Source: Plasmodiophora brassicae (Eukaryota). Taken from it: a stretch of DNA of 64,000 nucleotides. A program made the position numbers. The stretch lies in the NCBI GenBank assembly GCA_036867785.1, contig CP145418.1:310001-374000 (forward strand). The letters are read 5' to 3'. Positions 30,001-33,000 of the stretch are shown piece by piece; position 1 is the first letter of the stretch; the number at the start of each line of letters is the position of its first letter.

Positions 30001-33000
30001 TCGATCCCGGTACTCGAAGCGTAGATCGACGGAACTCGATAGCCCTTCTCGTCGGATATCAGCGCCGACGTCGTCCAGCCTACACGGTACGACAGGCCCA
30101 GGTTCACAGGGTCGTGGTTTGGAAGCGGCTCGCGTCACGGTGCCCTTGGGTGCGATCGCTCTGGGGATCAGCTGGGACCTACAGGTCTTCTCCAGCGCTC
30201 TGGCGTCACAGATGCTGGTCGACACGAGTCGTATCGCGAGTTGCGGGATCCTCGAATCCGTCCCGGCGGTCACGTTTTACGTCCTGCCCCCCGCAGACCC
30301 AACCCAGGCAGCAGCGCGCGCCGTCGCCGTTGCCTTCCAGCAGAACATGCAACTGGCCAACAGCACCCTCCGGAGCATCCCTCTGCTGGCGTACGCGCCC
30401 CCGCCACCGATCAACGTGACCGTAGTCGATGTCACCTTATCCAGGTGTTCGGACGGGACCTATGTCGTCGTCGACAGCGGCATCTGCCCTCCGAGTCCAC
30501 CAGCGCGTGGAGGCGCCACACCGGCGACACCGCAGGCGTCCGCCTTATCGTTAGAGACGATGGAGTTGATCGCCGGCGTATCCGTGTCCGTATTCTGTGT
30601 CCTTCTGATCACCCTCTGCGTCCGTTGCATCAATTTAAAGCTGGCAGGACGGGAGGGTGGCAACGGGAACGAGTTGCTGCCGCACCAGGTCGGTGTGGGG
30701 ACAACCCAGGAAACCTACCCAGCAACGTTCAACGAGAACGTGAACGCGTTCGCGTTACCACATCGGTCAGTGTCAACAAACGCGACCGTCGATCTCGGTA
30801 CGCTGCGAACGCTGGACGGCGAGCAGGACTCGACCCGGCGGCTTCAGGCGTTCGCCCTACCACCTCGCGTCGGGGACACGTTGGGCACGATCGACCTCAG
30901 TGATGAGAAGGACAATAATGAAGTGATTTATTCCGACCGACACCGGCGCGAGACGGCGGCAACGTAACGCTACGTAACAGGGGCTTGCCAAGCCGTTACC
31001 GACAACTGCGTCAGTGGCGGGGCCTCTGCCGTGGACGTTACGCTGTCGCGCACAGTCACGGCGTCACCGTGTGCCGGTGGTACGACATGGTCCTTGACAC
31101 GCCCCCTCCAACGGCACGCGGTTGCATGCGGAAGACGGTCGAACGGACGTGTCCCGGCTCGACCGTTGGCTCTGGATCATGAACAACACGGCCTTGCACG
31201 TGCACATATGTCTTGGCTCGTTGACGCGGCACGAGACGGATCGTGGCGTAGCTAGAGGTGACATGGACGGCGCGATTTGCTGAGGCTGCTGTCGACGATG
31301 ACAACGCAGGGCTCCGGGTCTGGCTCAGGACGACACCGACGCTGAGCGCGCCGGCGGACAACGTTATCTTGAAAGGCGAGTGTGGCAAGCGATTGAGGCC
31401 CGTACGACTGGCGTACGCCTGGCGCTTACGTCCCGGTACTGGTTCAGGATCCCCGTAGGACGACCTGCCTTGCTGACGCGATGTGCCTGGAATCTTGCGC
31501 GTGGCGCGGACTCGGGTGGGCGTTCGTGGCGCGTTGTGCAGAAGCAGGGTCAGGGTAGAGACGCAGTGACGCGGGACTGGCACTGGATGGCACCGGCGCG
31601 CGGGGCGCCGGTGGGCTCGCCGCCTCGAAGCGCGGAGAACGCGTACGACTGTTAATCTGAGAAGGACAATAATGAAGTGATTTATTCCGACCGACACCGG
31701 CGCGAGACGGCGGCAACGTAACGCTACGTAACAGGGGCTTGCCAAGCCGTTACCGACAACTGCGTCAGTGGCGGGGCCTCTGCCGTGGACGTTACGCTGT
31801 CGCGCACAGTCACGGCGTCACCGTGTGCCGGTGGTACGACATGGTCCTTGACAAGTGACAGGATGATGACCGCGAAGACGTTACAGCCGGCCACGGCGCA
31901 CAGCCCGTCGTTAAGGTTGACGGCCAGCCAAGACACTGACGACGCTGACTGCTCCGATTTCGAGACGGTCGCGGCAACCGGGACGCTAGCCGCCGCCGAC
32001 GGCGACGACTTCGACACGATCCGGATTGCGGTTGCAGGCCCTCGCGTCAGAGGCCAATGGCAGATGATCTCGGCGACGAACGAACCCGTGGGAACGGGGT
32101 CGGCACCCGCGCCGGATCCGTACCGCCCAGTGAAAGGCATGGCAAAGCCCGGCGCCAGGCGGAGGAAGAACGAGGCCGGCGGCGATGTCTCGACGATGAC
32201 TGCTTCCAGCGACGCTGACTGCTCCGACGTCGACGCCAATGAATAGGGACCTGCATGTCGCGGCGGACGTGTCCTGGCGAGCACGCATGGAACGACACGG
32301 AAACGTATATTAGATTCGACTATAGATATAGTAAACGGCGTGCCCAGGTTGTCATGCAGAACGCGACCTTGGTTTCGCTAGGGGCTTGACGTCGGCGAGA
32401 AGGACGCTCAGGGCGGTGTACTGCGGTAGGACGAGGTCGGACTGCAGGCGCGCTCGGCACTGAACCTCCTGGAACGCCGTCAATGACATCGGTACGCTTG
32501 CCCGCTTCGGCAGGGCGTCCGCCAGCGAACGCTTCCTGGACATTCTGGGAGTGTTGGCGCGTTTGGCAACTGGACCGGCCAGTTGGGGAGGTGTGACGGA
32601 CAGACGGCAGCGCCAGTCCTGCACGACAGACACCCTAGCTATTAATAGCCAAAGTCGCACATGACCTGAGGCCGCGTCCCAGCGACCAGGCCCGGCCGGC
32701 AGGATGCGGGACACGATGGGTAAGGTAACATAGCCATGGGAGACGCAACAAACCCTGTTATTGTATATTGGCATTGTTCATAAATGTGGAACTACGAACT
32801 GTTAGCTTTGGGATCTGGCTAACAAGTAGCCACTGCCCTGACGCGGTGGACGAGTACGAAACCGAGCGACGCGGCTATAACGCCTGACAGTGTGCTCTTC
32901 GTGCTATCTTGCACCTTGCGGTACTCGGCATACGTGCCGCTTTGGATGACGGCATCAACGCCTTATTCTTCCAGCTACTGTGCTTCTTTGTGTACTCTTT

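Follow-up and report, generated by a model that had tools for sequence, protein, structure and literature searches.

The stretch of Plasmodiophora brassicae DNA analysed here (64,000 nucleotides (nt), positions 310,001 to 374,000 of contig CP145418.1 in assembly GCA_036867785.1; hereafter the window, in whose numbering positions are given) contains a young non-autonomous long terminal repeat (LTR) retrotransposon at 30904-31853. It resembles the terminal-repeat retrotransposons in miniature (TRIMs). Its primer-binding site (PBS) is an exact complement of an internal segment of tRNA-Asn(GTT) that ends at nt 40 of the tRNA. Judged from this complementarity, the probable primer of minus-strand synthesis is a 5′ piece of cytoplasmic tRNA-Asn(GUU), and not the CCA end of a tRNA.

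Structure of the element

The element lies on the minus strand and consists, over 950 bp, of an LTR, the PBS, a 558-bp interior, a polypurine tract and a second LTR (Table 1). The two LTRs are direct terminal repeats of 196 bp with TG..CA ends; they are 100% identical and are the only two copies of this repeat in the window. Read on the minus strand, the repeat starts with TGTCAAGG and ends with CTTCTCA. The junction of the 5′ LTR with the interior reads ..TTGTCCTTCTCA / GATTAACAGTCGTACGC GTTCTCC.., the last base of the LTR being the A at 31658 and the boundary falling between 31658 and 31657. At the other inner junction a purine-rich sequence, ..TTGGAGGGGGCG, directly precedes the 3′ LTR, with the polypurine tract GGAGGGGG two bases away from it. 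TCACT is found at both outer ends of the element as a 5-bp target-site duplication (TSD). Within the LTR, AATAAA is observed at position 168 of 196, so that U5 is probably short. The identity of the two LTRs points to a recent insertion.

A single long stop-free frame (31059-31817) is found for the interior, with its first Met only near its end, and a Pfam search of this frame gave no match. Lacking a usable Met and a Pfam match, the element is regarded as non-coding and, at 950 bp in total, as TRIM-like. The initial annotation had assigned it to the Copia lineage. This part of the claim does not stand as written, since with neither an open reading frame (ORF) nor a Pfam match there is no pol gene order or reverse transcriptase phylogeny by which to place the element.

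Two 196-bp repeats that stand 754 bp apart and enclose no coding genes are also what a local tandem duplication of the form A-B-A, with a period of 754 bp, would leave behind. A duplication of this kind is nevertheless extremely improbable here. TG..CA direct repeats, a flanking 5-bp duplication and, upstream of the 3′ LTR, a polypurine tract are the structural features of an LTR retrotransposon; the purine tract and the tRNA complement lie at opposite inner junctions, and precise excision of the element gives an in-frame host ORF.

Counting both strands of the 64-kb window, the core of the PBS, the 10-mer CAGTCGTACG, has only two occurrences, each of them inside the element. The second box is found 241 nt further downstream, with the 10-nt palindrome GGCGTACGCC at its side (whole span 31401-31420), and might be a second primer contact, a dimerisation motif or a relic. 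CGTACG palindromes were counted three times in the sense strand of the element and 50 times on both strands of the whole window.

The primer-binding site and tRNA-Asn

Directly abutting the 5′ LTR, the minus strand from 31657 to 31641 reads GATTAACAGTCGTACGC, which corresponds to GCGTACGACTGTTAATC on the plus strand. This 17-mer occurs once in the window, even when up to three mismatches are allowed. An exact-match scan of a metagenome collection with it returned at least 123 matches at no fewer than 119 loci, and the counts that follow are for the 119 loci and 123 matches listed. In 60 of these loci ARAGORN placed a tRNA-Asn(GTT) over the match in 54; run on all 119, it called 238 tRNAs. The 17-mer is present in every one of the 109 tRNA-Asn(GTT) genes among them and in none of the 129 other tRNAs, so that 109 of the 123 listed matches fall in tRNA-Asn(GTT) genes. 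The likeness to this tRNA that had been proposed from the sequence is thus borne out.

The remaining listed matches were read individually. In six, an intron-like insert comes after a 5′ flank that resembles tRNA-Asn (L009, L039, L048, L064, L114, L118). In these the likeness to a tRNA is lost just past the anticodon loop and returns some 20-25 nt further on, and they look like intron-bearing tRNA-Asn genes that ARAGORN does not call as Asn. Two others with a tRNA-Asn-like 5′ flank are cut by the end of their contig (L099, L105). A further six have no tRNA context (L021, L022, L042, L075, L076, L086); an LTR/PBS junction was sought at these six and none was found. The collection being very large, they are regarded as background matches due to chance. 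One of them, L075, had been considered as a possible LTR junction, with ..CA, one base and then the word, and was rejected as it falls within a reading frame instead. Judged by eye, this frame seems to resemble the C-terminus of a HECT ligase. A pattern joining 16 bases of the tRNA-like word to the first two bases of the LTR, TG, had no match in a collection of viral contigs. Its single match in a collection of genome contigs lies in a bacterial metagenome-assembled genome with no tRNA at that place, and was dismissed as chance.

The 17-mer is the complement of standard positions 24-40 of tRNA-Asn(GTT), precisely the span first estimated, with the anticodon GTT in its expected place. These positions take in the last two bases of the D stem, G26, the 5′ strand of the anticodon stem, the CTGTTAA loop and positions 39 and 40. 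The base preceding the word is A in 106 of the 109 listed tRNA-Asn genes, which are mostly of bacterial or phage type. Only three genes, all of the eukaryotic nuclear type (L043, L060, L082), have a C there and match the C at window position 31640; T-runs follow the gene in L060 and L082, the two whose 3′ flanks were read. The C at 31640 extends the complementarity to a eukaryote-type tRNA-Asn to 18 of 18 positions (nt 23-40), after which it breaks, and the predicted energy of the 18-bp duplex is −29.8 kcal/mol. At the other end, nt 40, on the 3′ side of the anticodon stem, is the partner of the base adjoining the LTR. Complementarity to an internal tRNA segment ending at nt 40 is the mark of a half-tRNA PBS (PMC1181622). 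The implied primer end at nt 40 thus gives the geometry of the known half-tRNA primer, moved to another tRNA. In this respect the proposal of a half-tRNA-Asn primer in the initial annotation held up in silico, with a perfect complement of 17 nt, or 18 for the eukaryote type.

Whether the likeness could be fortuitous, with no role in priming, was a fair question while it was founded on a 7-nt loop and two stem pairs, and the six listed metagenome matches in non-tRNA DNA (of 123) demonstrate that the word does occur by chance. Such a coincidence is now judged very unlikely. The exact match of 17 to 18 nt is placed exactly at the junction of LTR and interior, is in the right orientation, ends at nt 40 and is not repeated in the window even at three mismatches; setting about 3,000 possible tRNA windows against 4^17 words gives an estimated probability below 1e-6.

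Other known kinds of primer fit less well. The interior's first TGG is at position 548 of 558, inside the polypurine tract, and the element therefore has no canonical PBS complementary to a tRNA 3′ end; the absence of a TGG immediately inside the 5′ LTR had been remarked on from the start. Initiator tRNA-Met is not indicated either, as the complement of the loop reads GTT (Asn) and none of the 129 non-Asn tRNAs at the listed loci, tRNA-Met included, holds the 17-mer. Self-priming, where a transcript doubles back so that its own 5′ end lies on the PBS and is then cleaved, occurs in Tf1/Sushi and has been put forward for some plant copia lineages (PMC6317226). For the present element it is hardly credible: aligned to the LTR without gaps, the primer-like 18-mer agrees at 10 of 18 positions at best, which 1304 of 2000 shuffled LTRs attain as well, and the longest exact match between the two is 6 nt. 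A predicted fold of the leader leaves the PBS mostly unpaired in the centroid, yet the fold is no better than those of shuffled sequences (z −0.39), so that the openness of the PBS is not evidence for priming.

The host's own tRNA-Asn was approached through public sequencing runs. Contigs of four runs (X1, X20, X3 and X12) were aligned to the eukaryote-type tRNA-Asn gene L060. One contig each in X1, X20 and X3 aligns to nt 7-63 of the L060 tRNA, with 51 of 57 positions identical, no gap and the differences unlocated. The unaligned ends of the host contig make up a proper acceptor stem of seven pairs, one of them G-U, with a T-run after it. As a control over the same 57 nt, the best of the 129 non-Asn tRNAs reaches 43 identities and the eukaryote-type tRNA-Asn L043 reaches 50. 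Together, the alignment, the acceptor stem, the T-run and the control show a nuclear tRNA-Asn-like gene of eukaryotic type in the host, intronless and spanning the 18-nt segment.

In the mechanism proposed here, cleavage of tRNA-Asn(GUU) on the 3′ side of its anticodon stem would give a 5′ fragment with a 3′-OH at C40. About 18 nt at the 3′ end of this fragment (nt 23-40) would anneal to the PBS that abuts U5, and reverse transcriptase supplied in trans would extend C40 into the LTR (U5-R). An autonomous element would have to provide the enzymes, and the likely candidate is a Ty1/copia element of hemivirus-like kind that carries the same PBS. Enzymes of the RNase A/T2 type produce stress-induced tRNA halves with cyclic phosphate ends; as a primer needs a 3′-OH, a nuclease leaving such an end would be favoured over them.

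The 18 nt could also derive from tRNA-Asn while the primer itself is another RNA, such as a truncated or precursor tRNA-Asn, a Dicer-type tRNA-derived fragment or a tRNA-derived RNA resembling a short interspersed nuclear element (SINE). The nuclease that would leave a 3′-OH at nt 40 is debated even for the known hemiviruses, the primer end of Ty5 having been attributed to RNase P cleavage (PMC5371799). The end at nt 40 is however the reported end of half-tRNA primers (PMC1181622), which favours the same process, and Rfam at gathering thresholds gave nothing across the window, including any tRNA-like or SINE-like RNA. Another primer RNA is therefore considered improbable, though less so than the other alternatives.

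Several points weigh against priming by half of the host's tRNA-Asn. The 40-nt tRNA-Asn fragment is a prediction from DNA sequence, and among the public runs listed none is recorded as RNA. G26, the queuosine-type base 34 and t6A37 all lie within the paired segment, and these expected modifications might hinder pairing or copying. The 64-kb window shows neither a further copy of the element nor an autonomous partner. Run X12 yielded no contig on L060, which, for one run of four, is no proof of absence. Finally, the host gene differs from L060 at six places somewhere in the 57 aligned nt. Pairing with the 3′ strand as read assigns at least two of the six to the 5′ strand of the T stem, so that the 18-nt segment might contain as many as four of them.

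These differences leave room for changes in the anticodon stem, and hence for a host tRNA-Asn that differs from the PBS in this segment. In that case the PBS would be a trace of a former host from which the element arrived horizontally, or the element would no longer be primable. This is considered quite unlikely. The identical LTRs and intact TSD argue for a recent transposition in this genome, the element shares the high G+C of the window, the stretch around it is present in 20 of the 24 public runs listed, and within the PBS the pairs 30-40 and 31-39 agree with each other. In retroviral and Ty replication, plus-strand strong-stop synthesis copies the 3′ end of the primer into the new PBS in each cycle. 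The PBS of a copy with identical LTRs should consequently mirror the tRNA that was actually used. Indirectly, the perfect match of the 18-mer, hard to explain otherwise, suggests that the host differences spare nt 23-40. Priming by a tRNA-Asn half is well supported in silico, though for the host itself it stays a proposal.

The interrupted reading frame and neighbouring genes

The element sits inside an ORF with a SUEL-lectin domain. When the element and one copy of the duplication are removed by script, the open frame from 28808 grows from 719 to 827 codons. The first 698 residues of this host ORF (28808-30901) have no homologue in the protein collection searched.

Table 1. Features of the element and of the host ORF that it interrupts, in window coordinates.
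Feature	Position	Strand	Remarks
Host ORF with SUEL-lectin domain	28808..30903, in-frame continuation 31859-32246	+	Pfam PF02140, E 9.6e-08
TSD, downstream copy	30899..30903	.	Same 5 bases as upstream copy
3′ LTR, 196 bp	30904..31099	-	Identical to 5′ LTR
Polypurine tract region	31100..31111	-	Adjoins 3′ LTR, read directly
Non-coding interior	31100..31639	-	Single long stop-free frame, Pfam-negative
Second PBS core CAGTCGTACG	31401..31410	-	Beside 10-nt palindrome GGCGTACGCC
PBS, 18 nt	31640..31657	-	Complement of eukaryote-type tRNA-Asn(GTT) nt 23-40
5′ LTR, 196 bp	31658..31853	-	100% identity to 30904-31099
TSD, upstream copy	31854..31858	.	AGTGA on + strand, TCACT on element's strand

The only tRNA that ARAGORN calls in the window is a tRNA-Thr (CGT) of 78 nt on the minus strand at 48969-49046. 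It has no Rfam support at gathering thresholds, and because of this silence the call is probably false. The 11-mer GTACGACTGTT is common to it and to the tRNA-like strand of the PBS, perhaps by chance.

An HSP70 ORF on the minus strand (45170-47419) is 100% identical to a Plasmodiophora brassicae protein over 85% of the query. Opposite this gene, on the plus strand at 44582-46276, lies a strong match to Pfam PF10712, 'NAD-specific glutamate dehydrogenase'. This family is known to match the antisense strand of HSP70 genes, and the match is most likely not a gene. Two adjacent long ankyrin-repeat ORFs on the plus strand (19273-21984 and 22637-25216) share a 151-nt repeat with 75% identity (20354-20504 / 23565-23715) and are probably tandem paralogues of the ankyrin family, whose members are described as effectors in P. 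brassicae (bioRxiv 10.64898/2026.10.14.759018). The minus-strand ORF at 17768-19351 contains 'Swiss Army Knife' phosphatase/phosphoesterase domains, PTP-SAK and 2H-SAK (E 1.1e-57 and 1.3e-17). The other genes of the window are eukaryotic.

Comparison with known half-tRNA primers

A close parallel is found in the hemivirus-type Ty1/copia elements of the Pseudoviridae (copia, 1731, Ty5 and Osser), whose PBS likewise lies against the 5′ LTR and pairs with an inner part of a tRNA. For hemiviruses such as copia and Ty5, nt 40 of the tRNA is the reported start point of synthesis (PMC1181622), and the implied 3′-OH at nt 40 in the anticodon stem is common to the group and the present element (PMC1181622; PMC8515867). 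The 5-bp TSD and the TG..CA LTRs are shared as well. However, hemivirus-type elements use initiator tRNA-Met and encode gag-pol, whereas the Plasmodiophora element matches tRNA-Asn(GUU) and encodes nothing. The present host is a rhizarian protist, as opposed to a fungus, plant, alga or insect.

TRIMs were reportedly defined by Witte et al. in 2001. They are likewise shorter than 1 kb, with short LTRs, a PBS and a polypurine tract, no ORF and a 5-bp TSD, and are mobilised in trans. To our knowledge, the PBS of the TRIMs described so far derives from the 3′ end of initiator tRNA-Met.

A system summarised in a review (PMC4139406), with the primary paper reportedly by Goodwin and Poulter, likewise has a PBS that corresponds to the inside of an elongator tRNA, with another tRNA and another host. 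In the Bianca lineage of plant Ty1/copia elements the half-tRNA PBS also comes from an elongator and not from initiator tRNA-Met (PMC6317226). Bianca differs in that it uses half of tRNA-Ile (with inosine at position 34), is autonomous and is confined to plants. Within plants, half-tRNA primers are reported only in Ty1/copia elements, with half of tRNA-Met in Osser, Bryco and Gymco-II and half of tRNA-Ile in Bianca; plant LTR elements with a tRNA-Asn PBS make up 2% of those surveyed and pair with the 3′ end of the tRNA, not with nt 23-40 (PMC6317226). A Copia affiliation of the present element can be surmised from this link between half-tRNA primers and Ty1/copia elements.

Besides Asn, a literature search found initiator Met, Ile and Arg(UCU) as documented half-tRNA donors. 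The same search, which left most subscription journals and the supplementary tables of PMC6317226 outside its reach, found neither a half tRNA-Asn primer nor a half-tRNA PBS on a TRIM, nor either of these in Rhizaria; PMC7175516 contains nothing on tRNA fragments. Gypsy and Copia LTR elements dominate the repeat fraction of P. brassicae, which amounts to 11-14% (bioRxiv 10.64898/2026.10.14.759018). Nothing was found on the PBSs of its LTR elements in the accessible part of that preprint or elsewhere in the literature searched.

The four donors, initiator Met (CAU), Ile (IAU), Arg (UCU) and Asn (GUU), all decode codons starting with A and so have U36 in common, and the primer ends at nt 40 wherever this is stated or shown among them. 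In tRNAs that decode such ANN codons, U36 is followed by t6A37 and then A38. If about a quarter of tRNA species belong to this class, three further donors from it would arise by chance about once in 64, by our estimate. It is tentatively suggested, as an idea judged rather unlikely to hold, that half-tRNA priming is of general occurrence and draws on a single class of tRNA, instead of being a quirk of initiator tRNA-Met. A cut directed by the loop or its modification, through RNase P-like 'hyperprocessing' or another nuclease, would then yield 40-nt 5′ fragments of ANN-decoding tRNAs with a 3′-OH, and Ty1/copia-like elements of fungi, plants, insects, algae and Rhizaria might have tapped such fragments repeatedly. 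The second CAGTCGTACG box of the present element could in that case act as a second contact for the same fragment, making the PBS bipartite as in Ty1 and Ty3.

LTR annotation tools that are restricted to matches with tRNA 3′ ends would miss or mis-score elements of this type. The present copy lies inside a host ORF, and the host is a pathogen of crops in which structural variation clusters in regions rich in transposons (bioRxiv 10.64898/2026.10.14.759018). More widely, half-tRNA priming is the defining trait of an entire genus among the copia-like elements. One more tRNA species, the fourth, in a fourth supergroup of eukaryotes and with the same end at nt 40, provides a natural comparison for how the primer is cut and why particular tRNAs serve, and suggests that the cut depends on features common to ANN-decoding tRNAs and not on the initiator tRNA as such.

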